From Candidatus Hadarchaeales archaeon (lineage in GTDB: Archaea > Hadarchaeota > Hadarchaeia > Hadarchaeales > Hadarchaeaceae), in assembly GCA_038851565.1 (NCBI GenBank), contig JAWCKV010000012.1, positions 1 through 23,773 on the forward strand: a DNA stretch of 23,773 nucleotides, written 5' to 3'. The notes beneath the pieces were generated by a model that saw nothing but the letters and a program-made list of their open reading frames with translations, was not told the DNA's origin and did no database searches. Below, in pieces: positions 7,297 through 23,400 of this stretch (position 1 is its first letter; each line of letters begins with the position of its first letter). A program made the translations under genes and the position numbers.

Positions 7297-7330
7297 CCGG
7301 AGAGAATCACCTGTTAGGGAGGTGTGGCGA

Positions 7331-7570
7331 ATGCCGATGGCAATAGTTCTGATAGACGCGCATGCCGGAACCGTGAGGGACATCATGGAGGGACTGAAGA
7401 AGATCAACGGGGTCGTGGAGGCCTACGGTGTAACGGGCCCGCACGACATCGTGGTCAAGATCGAACTGGGCAGGTTCGAGGATATCGCGGAGACCGTCAG
7501 CCAGGTCATACACAAGCTACCGGGCGTGAAGAACACCCTCACGATGTTCGCCTTCGAGCGGATAAAGTAG
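7331..7570 (+). CDS. Stand-alone Lrp/AsnC ligand-binding (RAM) domain protein
   Basis: GGAGGTG RBS before ATG 7331. GVVEAYGVTGPHDIVVKI and LPGVKNTLT; no HTH. TTTTTAAC TATA-like element near 7290. Confidence 0.88.
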   Translation: MPMAIVLIDAHAGTVRDIMEGLKKINGVVEAYGVTGPHDIVVKIELGRFEDIAETVSQVIHKLPGVKNTLTMFAFERIK

Positions 7571-7576
7571 GGATGC

Positions 7577-7644
7577 GGCACGTCAGTCCGCCCATCATTC
7601 ATATCATCGACAAGCTCAGACGATGTCGTGACATCATCCGTGCC
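7577..7644 (-). ncRNA. Box C/D 2'-O-methylation guide sRNA
   Basis: Minus strand reads GGCACG-G-ATGATGT(C)-CACGACATCGT-CTGA(D')-GCTTGTCG-ATGATAT(C')-GAATGATGGGCGGA-CTGA(D)-CGTGCC. 6-bp terminal stem; both guides are complementary to conserved rRNA segments. Confidence 0.85.
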
Positions 7645-7667
7645 ATAGTGAATCTCTGTGACCTCAG

Positions 7668-7675
7668 GATAAATT
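7668..7675 (-). promoter_or_regulatory. Candidate TATA box of the C/D sRNA
   Basis: AATTTATC on the minus strand, 24-31 nt upstream of the predicted 5' end at 7644. Confidence 0.5.
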
Positions 7676-7716
7676 CATATGCCCGGCGCTGTCTTTCCAT
7701 TGCGCAGGCAGAGGGG

Positions 7717-9249
7717 CTACCCCAGATCAAGCCTCTCCCCGTTCCGGAGTATCCGGACCTCCGGGCCCCTCACGCGCTCACGGAAGAAATCTGGATTTTC
7801 CGTGTGGACTGGCACAACGACCTTTGGGGAGATCTCCTCTATCATTTCTACCAGCTCCATCGGCGGCGCGTGCCCTGAAGCGTGAAAACCTCCAGTGAAA
7901 ACCGGCTTTCCATCGTTACCTATCCTGAACCCGACCACCCTTATCCCGAACATGCTGAGCCAGTTCCACAGCCTGCTGAAATCGAAGACGTCCTCCTCGT
8001 TGAAGGCCTCGCTGCTCGAGTAGATGTAGAGCCCCCCATCTGGCCTTATGTCGAGGAGGTTGTTGACGTCCCAGAAGCTGAAGCTGACGATGTAGCTTCC
8101 CTGGTTTTTTGAAATCTCCTCTGGGCCCAACAGCTTATCCTCATGTGCGCGCGCCACCTGCTCCTCCCACTTCTCCCGCTCCTTTATCGGCTGAAAAATG
8201 CGCAGCCTCTCAGTTCTTTCAACCCCGTCCACCGAGCCAACGGCGTCCAGGAGGTAGGCGTCCCTCATTGTGATCACCAGCTGCCGCCCTACCTTTTCCG
8301 CTACCCTAATGAAGGTCTCCAGCCTCTCGAGGTTTTTGGGAGAAAAGTCAGCGATGATCAGCCCACTCTCCCCCTCTGCGGCTTTGAGGCAGTTCTCATA
8401 CACCCTCTCCTCCGAGTCTCCCCCCTCCCCGGACCTGCTGCACCTGGTGCCCTCTATGACCAGCACACTCGGGCTCAGCTCCGCTGCCTTCCTCAGGAAG
8501 CGCCTGGTATCCCCTCCCCTGGCACCGTGTGTCCTCATGTCCCCGGTGTAAACCACCCAGCCTGCTCCTGTCTCCACTGCATAGGCGGAGGCCCCGAACA
8601 CCGAGTGGTCGACCGGGAAGTGTATGAAACCGGGAGCCTCATCGCCAGCCGGGGCCAGCCTCCCAGGGTCCAACCTCCTGCCGCCCGGGCTCCTCCTCCA
8701 GAACTCGGCAAACTTCTCAGGTAACCTGTCCACTATGAAAAAATCCCTCCCCGCGCTGGGCACCTTTTTCCAATCGCTTGCCACGACCATCCTATCTTCC
8801 GCATCGCACCTCACCCTGGGGGGAGAGTAAACCGCCTGTGAGTGGAGGTCAGATCTCCCTGAGTCCTGCACCGCCTTAAGGATGGCAGCGGTCATCGCGG
8901 TACAGTAAACCGGAACATCAGCCCTGAGGAGGCCTATGCAGCCAGAATGATCAAGGTGGGCATGGGTGAGGAGCACCCCGTCCACGCGAAGCGGGCTGAG
9001 CTGGCTCTGATCGAAATCTCCGGGGAAGATGTCTTCGCGATAAATCCTGAAGCGGGGAGCCAGGCCCATAGCGATGTAGTCGTGGATGCCCCTCCTGGAC
9101 CTGGGCTTAAGGTACTCCTCGTAGTACATTCCCATCCTGTGAAAGTTTATGCCAAAATCGAGGAGGAGCCCTCTCCCCCTGTCCTCCAGGTATATCTTTG
9201 AGCCGCCTATCGTGTCAGCACCGTCGAGCACGGTCAGAGAACCTGACAG
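7717..9249 (-). CDS. Metallo-beta-lactamase / beta-CASP (RNase J-like) nuclease family protein
   Basis: IGGSKIYL, LLLDFG, THAHLDH, VDHS, YTGD, FHASGHA, VVPVHTE. Start uncertain (CTG 9249 or GTG 9231). Confidence 0.88.
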   Translation of the reverse strand: MSGSLTVLDGADTIGGSKIYLEDRGRGLLLDFGINFHRMGMYYEEYLKPRSRRGIHDYIAMGLAPRFRIYREDIFPGDFDQSQLSPLRVDGVLLTHAHLDHSGCIGLLRADVPVYCTAMTAAILKAVQDSGRSDLHSQAVYSPPRVRCDAEDRMVVASDWKKVPSAGRDFFIVDRLPEKFAEFWRRSPGGRRLDPGRLAPAGDEAPGFIHFPVDHSVFGASAYAVETGAGWVVYTGDMRTHGARGGDTRRFLRKAAELSPSVLVIEGTRCSRSGEGGDSEERVYENCLKAAEGESGLIIADFSPKNLERLETFIRVAEKVGRQLVITMRDAYLLDAVGSVDGVERTERLRIFQPIKEREKWEEQVARAHEDKLLGPEEISKNQGSYIVSFSFWDVNNLLDIRPDGGLYIYSSSEAFNEEDVFDFSRLWNWLSMFGIRVVGFRIGNDGKPVFTGGFHASGHAPPMELVEMIEEISPKVVVPVHTENPDFFRERVRGPEVRILRNGERLDLG

Positions 9250-10044: not shown

Positions 10045-11163
10045 TCAGTCGCCAAAGAGGGCGTCGAGAATTATCCTGGGGTTGAACTCCAGCAGATCAT
10101 CATAGCCCTGTCCCGTGCCTATGAAGAGGATGGGCTTCCTTGTCACATGAGATATTGAGAGAGCCGCCCCTCCCCTCGCATCAGCGTCCATCTTGCACAG
10201 GATCGAGCCAGTTATCCCGACCGCCTCATCGAACGCCTTTGCCTGCTCCACCGCATCGTTTCCCGTGAGGGCGTCACCGACGAATATCACGGCATCAGGC
10301 CTGGTGACCCTGACTATCTTGCGCATCTCGTCCATCAGGTTGGCCTCTGTCTGCATGCGCCCCGCTGTGTCGATCAGCACGACATCCATCTGCTTAGCCT
10401 TGGCGTGGGATATCGCGTCGAAGGCCACGGCCGCTGCATCCGCGCCCCTCCTCTGCTTTATCAGGGGCACGCCGAGCCGCTGGGCGTGTATCTCAAGCTG
10501 CTCTATCCCGGCTGCCCTGAAGGTATCTGCAGCCGCCACCACCACCCTGTAGCCTCTATCCATCAGGTACTTTGCGAGCTTCGCGATTGTGGTGGTCTTG
10601 CCGGTGCCGTTGATCCCCACAAAGACGATGACGGCCGGCTCACCCCTCTCCCTCTTCTCCCTTATAACGCCGTCGAGGTCAAACCTCTCTCCCGGCGTCA
10701 GGACCTTCATCAGGGCCCCCCTGAGCACCTCATCCGCCAGCTTCTTCGGGTCCTCCCTCAGGCCTATCCTCCTGCCCACCAGAGAATCCCTAACGCTGGA
10801 GATTATCTCATCGGCGACCGGAACTGCCACATCGCTCTCAAGGAGGGCAACCTGCAGATCCCACAGGACATCGTCCAGGTCCTGCGCAGAGAGCTCCCTG
10901 CCGGTGATTCGCTTCACGGCCCTCCGCAGTCCGCGCTTGGGCCTCTCAGCAGGGAGAGCCGGAATCCTGTGCTTCTCCTTCTCGGGCTCCTCAACGCGCT
11001 GCGGGAGGGCCCTCTCAACCTCCGTCCTGGGCTCCTCAGCCTGCGGGGGGGCAGCTTTTTCAGCCTCCGCCCTGGGCTCCTCCACAGCCTCCTCAGCCGT
11101 CTCGGCCTTCCTTCTTATCTTCTCCTTGATCTCCCTCAGCTTCTTCTTGAGTCCCTCGAACAT
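10045..11163 (-). CDS. ftsY: SRP receptor FtsY
   Basis: MFEGLKKKL start, acidic region, LLESDVA, GINGTGKTTT, DTFRAAG, DTAGR, GTGQ. Confidence 0.98.
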   Translation of the reverse strand: MFEGLKKKLREIKEKIRRKAETAEEAVEEPRAEAEKAAPPQAEEPRTEVERALPQRVEEPEKEKHRIPALPAERPKRGLRRAVKRITGRELSAQDLDDVLWDLQVALLESDVAVPVADEIISSVRDSLVGRRIGLREDPKKLADEVLRGALMKVLTPGERFDLDGVIREKRERGEPAVIVFVGINGTGKTTTIAKLAKYLMDRGYRVVVAAADTFRAAGIEQLEIHAQRLGVPLIKQRRGADAAAVAFDAISHAKAKQMDVVLIDTAGRMQTEANLMDEMRKIVRVTRPDAVIFVGDALTGNDAVEQAKAFDEAVGITGSILCKMDADARGGAALSISHVTRKPILFIGTGQGYDDLLEFNPRIILDALFGD

Positions 11164-11202
11164 CAGCTTCCTTCCAAAACTCGGCTTCAACCGATTTAGG
11201 AG

Positions 11203-11661
11203 CTACGCCCCGCTACCGCCCTCTGATTCCTTCATGGCCTTGCCGAGCAGCGCATCCCTCTCCGGAATGAGCTTCTCAAGCTGTTCCTCCACCTTCATGG
11301 CCTCCGCCCCTATGCTGGTCATGGCCCTCTGTAGCTCATCGGAGCGCTCCTCCAGGAACTTTATCGCATCGTCTATGGGCTTCTCAACCACCACGTCGGC
11401 CCCGACCCCAACGAGGACCTTATCCTGTTTTTCGGACCTTGCTGGAACGAAAGTCTCTGGGCCAACCGGAACCAGTATCTCGGTGCCAGGCTGCACCTCC
11501 TTCATCCTCCTCAGCGCCTCAACCGTGGCACCTATCGAGCCAACAGCGTCACCAAGGGCCGAGATCTGCCTCCTCAGGAACTCCGCGATCGCGCGGCGCT
11601 CCTCTATCTGGGCAGATATCTCCTCCAGCCTCTTCCCCTCTTCCTCAGTCAGGCCATTCAT
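11203..11661 (-). CDS. pfdA: Prefoldin alpha subunit
   Basis: Coiled coils around ILVPVG...VLVGVGADVVVEK; conserved position upstream of ftsY. Confidence 0.95.
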   Translation of the reverse strand: MNGLTEEEGKRLEEISAQIEERRAIAEFLRRQISALGDAVGSIGATVEALRRMKEVQPGTEILVPVGPETFVPARSEKQDKVLVGVGADVVVEKPIDDAIKFLEERSDELQRAMTSIGAEAMKVEEQLEKLIPERDALLGKAMKESEGGSGA

Positions 11662-11882
11662 CCGCCTATCACCTCCAGTATCCTCCTATCCTTTACCTCG
11701 CCAGGACCTATTTCAACTATCTCCTCTATGTTTATCTGGTTTCGCTTCACCTTGTGCCTGCTTCCGATGAGGGAGTACGTTCTCTCCAGGGCCTGGGACT
11801 CGGAAAGAGCGGGCACCTCCTTGGTGAACCTCTGCAGGTCCAGGCCCTGTCTGAACCACCCCCTGATCCTGTAGACCTTCAT
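11658..11882 (-). CDS. rpl18a: 50S ribosomal protein L18Ae/LX (eL20)
   Basis: KVYRIRG, FTKEV, YSLIGSRHKVKRNQINI; synteny. Confidence 0.95.
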   Translation of the reverse strand: MKVYRIRGWFRQGLDLQRFTKEVPALSESQALERTYSLIGSRHKVKRNQINIEEIVEIGPGEVKDRRILEVIGG

Positions 11883-11891
11883 CTGACCACC

Positions 11892-12548
11892 TCACACGAA
11901 GCCCAGCGCGCTCTCTATTCTGCCGAGCTCGGGCCCCGTTGTGCTGAGCCCGACGAGCGCGCCGTTGGAGTTTGCGACCATGCACAGGCCAACCAGCTTC
12001 ACGCCCCCGCAGGCCGTCCCAACGTCCACAGGGACCCCCAGCACCCTCTCGGCACGCCGTATCTCGTCCTCCGTCGCATCCGGGCTCACGAGCGCCCCCT
12101 TCCCTGTTGCCACGCCCGCAGCGCCGACGTTCTTCAGTCCACCGAGGGTGCCCCTTTCGACCTTGACCCCCAGAGCCTTTTCTATCTCGGCCACCACCTC
12201 GGCAGGAAGGTCCGGGCTCACCAGCGCTCCCCTGTCGTTCGCGAGGACCATGTTCCCGAATGCCGTGTGCTTTCCGGGCAGGTACTTCACCTCGGGAGGT
12301 GATCCCTCACCTCGCACGGCCATATCAAACACCTCGGAGCATATGAGCGAGGATGAGTTCCCGGCCGTGAGGATGCCGACTAGAGGGCTCCTGCTCAGGT
12401 TCCCCCTGAAGGCTGGCACTCCCAGTGCCTCGACCACCCTGTCCCTCTTCCATGACATCGTGTCAGGAAGAACTGCGAATGAATCCGTGCAAACCGAGAA
12501 CGCGCCTATGAAGGGCACCCTGCCGAAGCTCATCCTTACCATGCGCAA
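11892..12548 (-). CDS. eif6: Translation initiation factor 6 (aIF6)
   Basis: FGNMVLANDRGALVSP, ANSNGALVG, TTGPELGRIE. Confidence 0.96.
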   Translation of the reverse strand: MRMVRMSFGRVPFIGAFSVCTDSFAVLPDTMSWKRDRVVEALGVPAFRGNLSRSPLVGILTAGNSSSLICSEVFDMAVRGEGSPPEVKYLPGKHTAFGNMVLANDRGALVSPDLPAEVVAEIEKALGVKVERGTLGGLKNVGAAGVATGKGALVSPDATEDEIRRAERVLGVPVDVGTACGGVKLVGLCMVANSNGALVGLSTTGPELGRIESALGFV

Positions 12549-12558
12549 GATGCTCCAC

Positions 12559-12810
12559 CTACTCAGCCAGGAAGGCGTTCACAGTCCCGTCGTCCTCCTT
12601 CACCGCCCGCACCCTGACCCTGGATCCCGGCTTCTGTATGCTCCTCCCCCACAGCCTCTCGTTCAGCTTTCCATCCAGCCTCACGACCTCTGCCTTCATG
12701 TGCCTGCGGAGAAAGTCCCTGACGAGCACGGCTGCCCGCTTTGCCCTCACGTTCCTGGGGGCATCTTTGACATCTCTGAGCGGTATGACGTAGATCCTCT
12801 CCTCAGGCAA
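12559..12810 (-). CDS. rpl31e: 50S ribosomal protein L31e
   Basis: ERIYVIPLR, RAKRA, LNERLWGRSI; TTG start after a GAGGTGG RBS. Confidence 0.96.
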   Translation of the reverse strand: MPEERIYVIPLRDVKDAPRNVRAKRAAVLVRDFLRRHMKAEVVRLDGKLNERLWGRSIQKPGSRVRVRAVKEDDGTVNAFLAE

Positions 12811-12819
12811 CGCACCACC

Positions 12820-12975
12820 TCACGGCTTTATGCTTCCCCTTCTCCACTGTCTTCTCTTTGCGCTCGACCTTATCCTTCCCCTGGTCTTAACCATCACCCA
12901 GACCGGAGCCCTCTTCGAGAGCCTCGCGGCCCTTCCGAGCCTCCTCTTGAGCGGATACGGCCTGTTCCTGGCCAT
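12820..12975 (-). CDS. rpl39e: 50S ribosomal protein L39e (51 aa; missing from the ORF track)
   Basis: Manual translation MARNRPYPLKRRLGRAARLSKRAPVWVMVKTRGRIRSSAKRRQWRRGSIKP; expected position before L31e. Confidence 0.95.
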   Translation of the reverse strand: MARNRPYPLKRRLGRAARLSKRAPVWVMVKTRGRIRSSAKRRQWRRGSIKP

Positions 12976-12976
12976 C

Positions 12977-13318
12977 TCATATCCTCCTTATCCTGAACTC
13001 CCTCCTCTTTGACTGGAGCCTGTCGAGTATGGTCTTCAGCTGCTCATCGGTGATCTTTGATGTTATCCTGCCGGACTGCGCCAGCTGAATTAGCTGGAGC
13101 TCCAGCTGCTCGGCGAACTCCGGCTTCACCATCCTTATGTTCGCCAGCCTGTTGCGCGCCTCGGGGGTGAGGATCTCCTGAAGGATCGCCCTCTTCTGTA
13201 TCTCGTACTGCCTCCTGAGCTCGGCCTGGCGCCTCTGCTCCTCGAGCCTCGCCTGGTACTCAAGCATCTTCCTCCTCTTTATCTCCTCAAGCTCTGCCTC
13301 ATCAGGCTCAGGTTCCAC
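12977..13318 (-). CDS. PDCD5-family dsDNA-binding protein
   Basis: [42 protein letters not shown] 13318 follows GAGGTGA. Confidence 0.93.
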
Positions 13319-13736
13319 CCGCCTCACCTCTAAGCTTCTCCGCCAGGCCCTCCAGAAGCGAGGAGCCCTTGGACGTGAGCTTTCTGCCGCTCCTCTCTGC
13401 CTTGGTCACGAGCCCGGCCCTCTCAAGCTGCTGCAATACTGTCCTCACTATCTTCCCACCTCCCCTCCTTGAGTGCTCCGGGGCCTGTCCCCTGTTCTGC
13501 CTCCCTCCGTAATACGTCCTGAGCCTCGAGACGCCCACCGGTCCGTCCAGGTATATCCTCCTGAGGATCGAGGCGGCGCGAACGTACCACCAGTCGGGCT
13601 GCTCCGGCGGCCTCTCCCTGCTCGCGCCGGTCTTCACGTACCTGCTCCACTCCGGGGGCCTCACCTCACCGAGCTTCTTCAGCTCCTCCTTAAGTGCGCC
13701 TATCAGCCTGTCCGCCCTAACCTCCCGCACAGACAT
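13308..13736 (-). CDS. rps19e: 30S ribosomal protein S19e
   Basis: [36 protein letters not shown]. Confidence 0.98.
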
Positions 13737-13853
13737 GCCATCACTCCACAGTCTCCTAACCTTCTCGGTTTATCGATATTAATTCTTTCGTGAACCGTTG
13801 AGCATCTCAATATATATACCATATCGGACGAATGGGCATGGAGGTATTAAAAA

Positions 13854-14393
13854 ATGAGCCAGAGAGGAATGGCTACGCTTGTGATCGTAGGAATCGTCGT
13901 TGCTGTGGTTGTGGTTGCAGGTGTTGCTGTGGCGGCCGCAATAGTGCTGTCGGGTGGTGGCATAGGCGGTGGCGGAGCAGGCGGAGGCGGCGGCATAAAT
14001 ATCGCACAGGCCACGAGCCTGCAGTTCGACGTTGAAGCGAGAGACGCCTCCGGCAACATGGTGACATCGGGAACGTGCTACATGAAAAACATTGGACAAT
14101 CTAACGCAAAGATCAGGATGGACATGACCGCTCAGGGGACGCAGGTCAAGATCATCATAGATGCCGCCTCACAGAAGTTTTGGCTTTGGAGCGGGGAAAC
14201 CGGCTGGATGGATATGTCGGGGTATATGAACCCTGACGTCTACGAGTCCATGGCCCAAGGCTATCGATCGAGTCTGTCCAACTGGGGTGGGACGGGAGAG
14301 TACACATATACCTCTTCAGAAGGACACTCCGTGAGAATCTACAACATCCACGTCAACCCGGCGCTCAGCGATTCCCTGTTCACGCCAAGCTGA
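13854..14393 (+). CDS. Surface protein with class III (pilin-like) signal peptide, Gly-rich linker and possible LolA/DUF4412-like domain
   Basis: GGAGGT RBS. MSQRG|MATLVIVG... followed by a long hydrophobic helix, SGGGIGGGGAGGGGG linker and C-terminal VNPALSDSLFTP. Confidence 0.7.
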   Translation: MSQRGMATLVIVGIVVAVVVVAGVAVAAAIVLSGGGIGGGGAGGGGGINIAQATSLQFDVEARDASGNMVTSGTCYMKNIGQSNAKIRMDMTAQGTQVKIIIDAASQKFWLWSGETGWMDMSGYMNPDVYESMAQGYRSSLSNWGGTGEYTYTSSEGHSVRIYNIHVNPALSDSLFTPS

Positions 14394-14409
14394 GCCAAAC
14401 TATGAGACT

Positions 14410-14733
14410 TCAATAAATGGAGGGCCTTTGGCCCTCTTTATTTTTGTCGTAGGGCAAACGAATCACCCTGCCGCACCTGAGGCAGGTTATGGTCAACCTT
14501 CCCTTTTTTATACGGACCCTGCACGTCAGACCCGGGACCCACACCGTAAGGCACTTCCTGCAGAACCTTCTCCTGAGGTCCGCAGGCAGCCCGAGCCTCC
14601 GCCTCGTTTTTATCCTCCACGCGAGCCTGACATACCTCTCCGACAGCTCCGGCCTGCGCCCTATCTCCTCCTCCGCCATCCGGAGAAGGGACCTCACGCG
14701 CTCGAGCAAGGCCTCCCTTTCCTCAATTGCCAT
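14410..14733 (-). CDS. rnp4: RNase P protein component 4 (Rpp21)
   Basis: ERYVRLAWRI, RRFCRKC, RVRI, TCLRCG zinc ribbon. ATG 14733 overlaps the nep1 end. Confidence 0.93.
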   Translation of the reverse strand: MAIEEREALLERVRSLLRMAEEEIGRRPELSERYVRLAWRIKTRRRLGLPADLRRRFCRKCLTVWVPGLTCRVRIKKGRLTITCLRCGRVIRLPYDKNKEGQRPSIY

Positions 14734-15418
14734 GGAGCCTCTCACCCTGAAGTCCCAGTCTGTCCTCATATGCATGTATCGCCCTCGCGACGACGGTGGG
14801 CGCGGTCAGAAGGTCCGGGTCCACACAGACGAGTTCATCTGCCAGCTCGTCGACCGGGGACAAAAAATCTCCATGCGGAAAGCCGCCCACTATCGCGCAC
14901 GCATCTTCATCCCTGCCCAAGTCCCTGAAGATGGATCCCCACTCCCTTTTTTTCCCCTTATCGGTGAACACCACGGTCCTCCTCGGAGAAATCCCCCTCA
15001 CCGCATCGCTCAGGGTGGCACGTTCAAGCGTCAGCAGGGGGCTCTCCGAGGGAGCCTTCCCGTTCATGAAAAGATGCTCGAGCAGTCCCTCGAACCTGTT
15101 CTGGGAGACCGGGAGCCTCGTCGATGGGTCCACCCTGATGAGCAGGTTGTGCCTCGTGTGAACGTAAACCCTCAGCAGTCCGGACCTGTTCAGGGGGGAG
15201 TCCAAAGCCAGGAGGAGGGAGAAGTGAGCTATGTCTGGCCTTCCCCTGCGCTCCCGGTCCGGAAGCCCGCGCATCGCCGGATAGTGAAGGCTGGAGTTCA
15301 GTATTAGCTCTGTTGGCCTTCTGCCCCTCTTCATCGCATGGTGCCTTATCACCCTGTGCGTCGATATCTCCGGGGGAACTGTCTCGACCTCCGAATCCGC
15401 GAGGATCAGGTGCAGCAT
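14723..15418 (-). CDS. nep1: 16S rRNA pseudouridine N1-methyltransferase Nep1/Emg1 (SPOUT)
   Basis: RRGRPDIAHFSLL, SPLNRSG, YVHT, RFEGLLEHLF, VGGFPHGDF. Confidence 0.96.
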   Translation of the reverse strand: MLHLILADSEVETVPPEISTHRVIRHHAMKRGRRPTELILNSSLHYPAMRGLPDRERRGRPDIAHFSLLLALDSPLNRSGLLRVYVHTRHNLLIRVDPSTRLPVSQNRFEGLLEHLFMNGKAPSESPLLTLERATLSDAVRGISPRRTVVFTDKGKKREWGSIFRDLGRDEDACAIVGGFPHGDFLSPVDELADELVCVDPDLLTAPTVVARAIHAYEDRLGLQGERLHGN

Positions 15419-23102: not shown

Positions 23103-23309
23103 GCTGTTTCCCCCTTCACGTTTGGAGTTCAAACGTGGCCTTGGATGACCCCACAACAGAAAGCCGCATGCTCCGGCTGGCCCCTTGCGTCAACTTACTC
23201 TCCTCCGTGTTTTTCACTCCCAACTCCGGTCCAGCCAGCCCCCACATCTACACGACTTCAAATCATTTAAGCTTAATTATTGAGGTAGCGGGTTACCACG
23301 AACGAGAGG

Positions 23310-23400
23310 TGCGGCAGGCGGGATTCGAACCCGCGCCGCAGGCTTGGCAAGCCTGTGTCCTTTTTGGGGGATGTCCCTAACCAAGCTAGACTACTGCCGC
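23310..23400 (-). tRNA. tRNA-Gly(GCC) with a 17-nt intron in the D-loop; full CCA not encoded
   Basis: Acceptor GCGGCAG/CTGCCGC-A, D stem GTCT/GGAC, anticodon arm CAGGC-TTGCCAA-GCCTG, T arm GCGGG-TTCGAAT-CCCGC. Removing 23362-23378 gives a 74-nt cloverleaf. Confidence 0.95.
23362..23378 (-). other. Non-canonical tRNA intron (position 20a/21) with bulge-helix-bulge
   Basis: UUGG/CCAA 4-bp central helix, 3-nt bulges UUA and AAA, inner helix GGG/CCC closing an ACAU loop. Confidence 0.88.

Follow-up and report, generated by a model that had tools for sequence, protein, structure and literature searches.

We are presenting an analysis of a 23,773-nucleotide stretch of DNA (the window; contig JAWCKV010000012.1 of assembly GCA_038851565.1) from Candidatus Hadarchaeales archaeon, in which the gap between two protein genes holds, on the minus strand, a 68-nt sequence organized as an archaeal box C/D small RNA (sRNA). 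Its parts and neighbours, listed in the direction of the putative transcript, are the following:

7717-9231, minus: neighbouring gene, upstream and on the same strand, for an MBL-fold/beta-CASP-like nuclease
7673-7668, minus: TATA-like element TTTATC with A-rich bases immediately upstream, 23 nt before the stem
7644-7639, minus: 5' arm of the terminal stem, GGCACG, with compensatory changes at 5/6 pairs
7637-7631, minus: box C, AUGAUGU (U replaces the last A of the consensus)
7630-7620, minus: D' guide, 11 nt, with A7624 at the +5 position; predicted target 23S U2504
7619-7616, minus: box D', CUGA
7615-7608, minus: short stem-loop closing the C'/D' K-turn; its first pair is G-C in 27/27 copies
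7607-7601, minus: box C', AUGAUAU
7600-7587, minus: D guide, 14 nt, with G7591 at the +5 position; predicted target 16S C1402, look-alike site 23S C2558
7586-7583, minus: box D, CUGA
7582-7577, minus: 3' arm of the terminal stem, CGUGCC
7337-7570, plus: neighbouring gene, convergent, for a stand-alone Lrp/AsnC ligand-binding domain (PF01037, E 3.7e-14)

The stop codon of the Lrp/AsnC-domain gene lies 6 nt from the 3' end of the sRNA. An earlier annotation made from the letters alone (the sequence-only reading) had named both neighbours, which our analysis confirmed, and had found the four boxes, the stem and the TATA-like element at these same places.

The sRNA gene in its genome

Boxes C, D', C' and D follow one another in this order within the 50-70 nt by which archaeal box C/D sRNAs are recognized, and the terminal stem completes the K-turn geometry of the class. 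Boxes C and C' each deviate by 1-2 bases from RUGAUGA, with intact UGA cores. A strict four-box pattern occurred once in the 823 kb genome, at this site, and once in ten shuffled genomes. The Rfam comparison, which the sequence-only reading had proposed as a check, returned only sub-threshold C/D matches, the best being sR2 (RF01139), which at 20.8 bits stays below the cut-off of 42; at E<=5 the same scan gave no match of the window RNA to sR1 (RF01152). In two heuristic scans of the 87% complete source genome this sRNA was the only stem-closed canonical C/D RNA; the C/D set of the organism may be very small, or its remaining members may be degenerate.

The source genome encodes fibrillarin and Nop5, adjacent on contig C1, as well as L7Ae. 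RsmI (TIGR00096) was found in 0/5 genomes searched, of which four have a completeness of 90% or more, with 10/10 bacterial controls positive. Elsewhere in the window, positions 10045-15418 hold a translation cluster including Nep1/EMG1 (Pfam E 3e-48), in which we also take the translations to represent FtsY, prefoldin, ribosomal proteins, an eIF6-like protein and an RNase P subunit-like protein. At 23308-23400, on the minus strand, ARAGORN called a tRNA without a name, the anticodon arm of which reads GCC (Gly) by eye; a short insert between its D arm and anticodon arm is likely a non-canonically placed intron.

Conservation and the upstream motif

A BLAST search with 161 nt gave matches at E<1e-5 in 32/40 relatives, centred on the sRNA. 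The guide pattern matched 61/66 Hadarchaeota genomes, in 58 of which all four boxes could be parsed, the other three having a degenerate D'; as the reversed control pattern matched 16/66 genomes, every guide-pattern match was examined individually. No pattern match was obtained in the remaining five genomes (67-83% complete), where a pattern allowing two mismatches gave noise only. Records titled Hadarchaeota (L129, L172, L182) have the same sRNA type. In the 27 BLAST-found copies the pairs of the terminal stem and C'/D' K-turn were 87.5% paired, with 39 double changes, a level reached by 0/500 shuffles and compared with 26-45% in slid controls. The box C/D interpretation of the sequence-only reading survives both box parsing in relatives and stem covariation. 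The rRNA match taken by itself is only modestly significant; the case for an sRNA is built on this conservation. In one relative (L014, G007:C96 4425-4682) the sRNA is present in two tandem copies about 190 nt apart, one of which has a decayed, AU-rich D' guide.

The sequence-only reading had also suggested a synteny search in related genomes. The sRNA is kept there, whereas its flanking genes are not: neither of the neighbours picked in the window clusters with those of the other 46 loci, and the beta-CASP-like gene is the picked neighbour in 0/46 of them. A 184-codon plus-strand open reading frame (7324-7878) does span the site and, together with the low Rfam score, could speak for a coding segment or a chance arrangement of spacer sequence; however, conservation is limited to the sRNA, the stem covaries, and spanning frames are found in just 10/47 loci, with unrelated lengths, so that this explanation is effectively refuted and can be dismissed for practical purposes.

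A TATA-like motif falls within one 12-nt window, 29-40 nt before box C, in 35/47 homologous loci, as opposed to 0-4/47 in 17 control windows (loci with long flanks). By heuristic ORF picking the nearest upstream frame is divergent in 14/47 loci, which makes read-through impossible there. A conserved upstream motif beside changing neighbours indicates that the sRNA moves with its promoter and supports independent transcription; judged by these patterns the gene likely has its own promoter, in agreement with the sequence-only reading. A scan for sigma-70 promoters, the models of which do not represent archaeal ones, gave nothing at the locus. Four hot-spring RNA runs contained zero reads on the locus, the organism itself not being evident in those runs.

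Pairing of the two guides with rRNA

In the source assembly the organism's own 16S (Rfam scan) and own 23S are absent, and pairing was done on the rRNA of relatives; E. coli numbering was taken via the alignments in PMC4644070. The duplex of the D guide with 16S joins guide positions 2-11 (7588-7597) to 1399-1408, includes a single U-G (at 1405), and sets G7591, at position 5, opposite C1402. The 10-nt pairing put forward by the sequence-only reading thus holds on relatives' 16S. In the wider archaeal survey described below, the 16S site is intact everywhere it was located (28/50 genomes searched). Judged by about 10 nt of pairing and a Watson-Crick pair at N+5, both segments read as guides, with 10 nt for D and 8 nt for D' on relatives' rRNA. 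A score equal to that of the D guide was obtained somewhere in 16S+23S by 4.6% of shuffled guides. Targets in tRNA were rejected, the best scores among 33 own tRNAs being 7.5 (D) and 8 (D'), none of which beats rRNA. No second C1402-type guide was found in the source genome.

The same D guide also pairs with 23S 2554-2564 in helix 92 over 11 unbroken nt, two of them G-U, with C2558 at +5, a match that the sequence-only reading had overlooked. For the window D guide we obtained -20.3 kcal/mol with 16S versus -16.4 with 23S, and the 16S duplex is the more stable one in 14/14 genomes having both sites. Five Bathyarchaeia combine C at guide position 11 with G1408 in the 16S; by eye, the same combination is seen in Sac sR122 and Iho sR11 in the available supplements of PMC4644070. 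Some variants go against 16S: A at position 10, in 2/58 phylum members and 4/94 other archaeal matches, disrupts pairing with C1407, and A at position 2, in 13/58 and 77/94, respectively, is mismatched to C1399. Also, the 16S duplex with its G-U fails the rule of nine contiguous Watson-Crick pairs of Dennis 2015 (PMC4644070). In two genomes (G094:C6:5659-5682 and G104:C18:7996-8019) 16S has A1405 instead of G, and guide U8 is Watson-Crick there.

A wider survey of the guide core, covering 9/64 parts of the GTDB collection, gave 120 loci: 94 archaeal-titled, 22 bacterial-titled chance matches, three probable misbins and one left out. A 4-bp stem was present in 82/94 archaeal-titled versus 0/22 bacterial-titled loci. 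The guide core spans Methanobacteria, Thermoplasmata, Poseidoniales, Methanomassiliicoccales, Bathyarchaeia, Iainarchaeota, Altiarchaeota, Aenigmarchaeota, Thermococci and Hadarchaeota, with lineage-specific D' partner guides. Within the class of G096 the guide matches 112/121 genomes, and a more stringent pattern matches 44/301 genomes in the phylum of G080; the counts of the wide searches include non-independent kin, and variants outside the patterns, which fixed most guide letters, are invisible in them. The 23S was searched by BLAST for 49/94 loci and the region was present in 25; interruptions of the 23S duplex fall within guide positions 3-10 in 14/23 genomes and at positions 3-4 in a further two, and in G120, of Thermococcales type, the duplex is interrupted at position 4. 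Three loci in records titled as gut bacteria (L086, L100, L170) are complete archaeal-type sRNAs resembling those of Methanomethylophilaceae or Methanobrevibacter, and are probably misbinned archaeal contigs. After the nearest-neighbour energies and this survey, 23S C2558 was dropped as the main D target. On these comparisons 16S C1402 is the better supported candidate, as the sequence-only reading had proposed, and the D guide probably aims at C1402 as its core target and would direct Cm1402.

The 23S site could nevertheless have a role beside C1402. A bifunctional D guide would act on 16S C1402 and on 23S C2558 beside the A-loop and, with the D' guide, the RNA would serve three sites in both subunits, an arrangement that we consider possible though doubtful. 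Where the two sites differ, the majority letters G2, U8 and G10 pair with both, one pair being Watson-Crick and the other G-U, and the 23S duplex is unbroken over 11 nt at -16.4 kcal/mol. In the phylum C8 was seen only with 23S G2561 (2/8 such genomes, one genus) and never with A2561; A10 variants in two lineages make the 23S pair with U2563 perfect, and in family f2 the 23S has C2563, with which G10 is Watson-Crick. The distance of C2558 from the D' target, 54 nt, is usual for double guides in the available parts of PMC4644070. Pulling the other way, U8 is kept where the 23S offers no explanation, namely in Thermococcales-type genomes with A2557 and, with 23S G2561, in S. acidocaldarius and 6/8 phylum members; the C8 lineages (Methanomassiliicoccales, Aciduliprofundum, Bathyarchaeia) gave up the 23S match. 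A measured archaeal Cm2558 was not found in the literature covered. Dual action supplements, and does not replace, the explanation centred on C1402; C2558 may be an extra D target in lineages such as this one. Much less probable is a plain 23S double guide for U2504 and C2558 with an incidental match to 16S. Both 23S sites lie within 100 nt, simple pair counting gives 10.0 for 23S versus 9.5 for 16S, and the A2 and A10 variants favour 23S. Yet the 16S duplex is the stabler one wherever both can be compared, G10 is retained in 56/58 though A would be Watson-Crick with 23S, the guide tracks 16S family-wide, the source genome yielded no other guide of the C1402 type, and partner guides vary by lineage, which makes the distance to the partner site weak evidence. 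The double-guide definition of Dennis 2015, by which both targets lie within 100 nt of one rRNA, would apply only if D acts on C2558, and does not apply to C1402 with U2504.

The sequence-only reading, which had read the D guide correctly, missed the D' guide. This segment pairs with 23S 2501-2508 or 2509, with U2504 at its +5 position, and among rRNA sites this one ranks first for the 50 main-type D' copies; the 8-bp D' match of the window alone is at chance level (P 0.46). The +5 pair is Watson-Crick in 13/13 main-type genomes with 23S, in duplexes of 6-10 bp, and D' positions 8-10 vary. In a second clade, which lies in the class of G096 and likely represents Methanofastidiosales, the same D core is combined with G at D' position 4 in 24/25 loci fetched, and the 23S has C2503 opposite this G4 in 4/4 paired cases, with duplexes of 10-11 bp. 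This joint change is the stronger support for U2504 as the predicted target; one genome (G010) has 23S C2503 without a compensating D' change. Unrelated D' guides are found in eight genomes of two other families (f2, f5). A pairing of D' with the 3' strand of 16S helix 44 was rejected, having a +5 mismatch and not being top-ranked.

A different role for the D' segment, that of an internal hairpin arm pairing with box C and not of a methylation guide, appears improbable to us. Its positions 1-8 each complement the RNA's own box C in 42-50/50 main-type copies, position 1 agrees with box C (43/50) and not with 23S (0/50 Watson-Crick), and the MFE fold of the window RNA forms the hairpin. Such self-complementarity is to be expected from the resemblance of box C to the 23S target. 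Against the hairpin, position 2 is G in 44/50, Watson-Crick with C2501 and a mere G-U with box C, and the second clade combines a canonical box C with a D' guide that follows C2503. On balance we favour the view that the sRNA would direct Um2504, with less assurance than for C1402.

Two side observations concern the same region. Family f2 (L027, L028, L029, L277-L279) has the same D guide and a different D' guide, the best match of which in 3/3 tested is 16S around 1020 (own numbering; 8-9 bp), which suggests retargeting. In six relatives (L060, L062, L063, L064, L065, L067) C2501 of the 23S is preceded by foreign sequence, apparently an intron inserted after U2500, at the edge of the D' duplex.

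Proposed function and relation to known guides

We explain the locus, with considerable confidence, as a 68-nt box C/D guide sRNA, likely with its own promoter, aimed at C1402 through the D guide and less surely at U2504 through the D' guide. In RNAs of this class L7Ae binds both K-turns, and methylation by Nop5-fibrillarin falls on the nucleotide paired with the fifth base before D or D' (PMC4644070, parts available). From sequence we infer transcription, RNP assembly and, by the N+5 rule, both methylations: the sRNA would be transcribed from its own promoter and bind L7Ae, Nop5 and fibrillarin, its D guide would direct 2'-O-methylation at 16S C1402 and its D' guide, less surely, at 23S U2504. 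RNA guidance would then achieve at C1402 what RsmI does in bacteria.

Cm at the C1402 position was measured in P. abyssi (Cm1376 in PMC7005279, Cm1369 in a table of PMC11542601) and in N. equitans (PMC5389701), and I. hospitalis sR11 was proposed as a Cm1402 guide, with methylation at 1402 below 50% (Seistrup et al., PMC5389701). The same guide core, with U8, stands beside D or D' in Iho sR11, M. kandleri sR114, S. acidocaldarius sR122 and M. maripaludis sR106 (PMC4644070). All four are RNA-seq-verified, and in the available parts of PMC4644070 this guide has no listed target in any of them, which is consistent with the nine-Watson-Crick rule of that paper. The guide stands at D' in sR11, sR114 and sR122 and at D in the window sRNA, and the partner guides are unrelated. 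P. furiosus sR26 has nine identical guide bases (positions 3-11) and the same U8 (PMC4836650, PMC7089733); its guide is at D' and its partner complements the 16S 3' end, whereas the window sRNA has the guide at D with a different partner, and so shares the guide module and not the whole RNA. In reconstituted RNPs sR26 was active on perfect-complement substrates, the available passages naming no rRNA position (PMC4836650, PMC7089733). Thermococcales-type copies pass the Rfam cut-off of sR1 (RF01152), while the window sRNA reaches no Rfam cut-off. In L287 (G120) an sR60 copy follows immediately downstream of the sR26-type RNA, forming a two-sRNA cluster.

Separate RNAs with other partners are predicted for the same 23S positions, namely Iho sR204 for U2778 (E. 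coli U2504) and M. kandleri sR64 for C2832 (C2558), as numbered by offset from U2552 and C2556 in the available parts of PMC4644070. Pyrobaculum sR25 aims at the C1402 equivalent with a conserved +5 mismatch (PMC4644070 supplement 1; PMC6009581) and may bind without methylating. A cross-subunit guide is known, Neq sR20 (PMC5389701), and single guides with two predicted sites are known already. The eukaryotic equivalents of Cm1402 are Cm1703, guided by U43/SNORD43, and Cm1639 in yeast (PMC11542601, PMC7005279). In the Rfam scan the window sRNA had no match to any eukaryotic family. U43/SNORD43, snR70 (which we take to be the yeast guide for the C1402-equivalent Cm1639) and RsmI, a protein-only enzyme, modify the same nucleotide as is predicted here. 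No Hadarchaeota C/D RNA was found in the literature covered; the Pyrococcus catalogues of 2000, the RiboMeth-seq tables for P. furiosus and Figure S3 of PMC5389701, which lie outside it, might assign sR26 to C1402 or report C2558. The passages available from PMC11698992, PMC11551388, PMC13037946, PMC7758197, PMC9014305, PMC5558902 and bioRxiv 2024.11.12.623245 do not settle the rRNA sites.

The window sRNA is an ordinary member of a known guide class, the same core being known in other archaea. Ribose methylation in archaea is normally RNA-guided, and Cm1402 is established for all three domains. For U2504, a pseudouridine in E. coli, our analysis predicts a ribose methylation. The C1402 guide appears as one module in many archaeal lineages, with partner guides changing. 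Published screens requiring nine contiguous Watson-Crick pairs left it targetless owing to a single wobble, and the substrate used in work on the model RNA sR26 matches neither natural site. More tentatively, and in our estimate unlikely, a wobble-tolerant D guide would read both C1402 and C2558 and D' would mark U2504, the module, shared over much of the archaeal tree, being possibly ancestral to eukaryotic U43/snR70; if true, a single RNA would serve three functional-core methylations from the decoding centre to the peptidyl-transferase centre. The finding, routine as a single gene, has comparative value, and it also bears on whether one wobble-tolerant guide can serve both ribosomal subunits.
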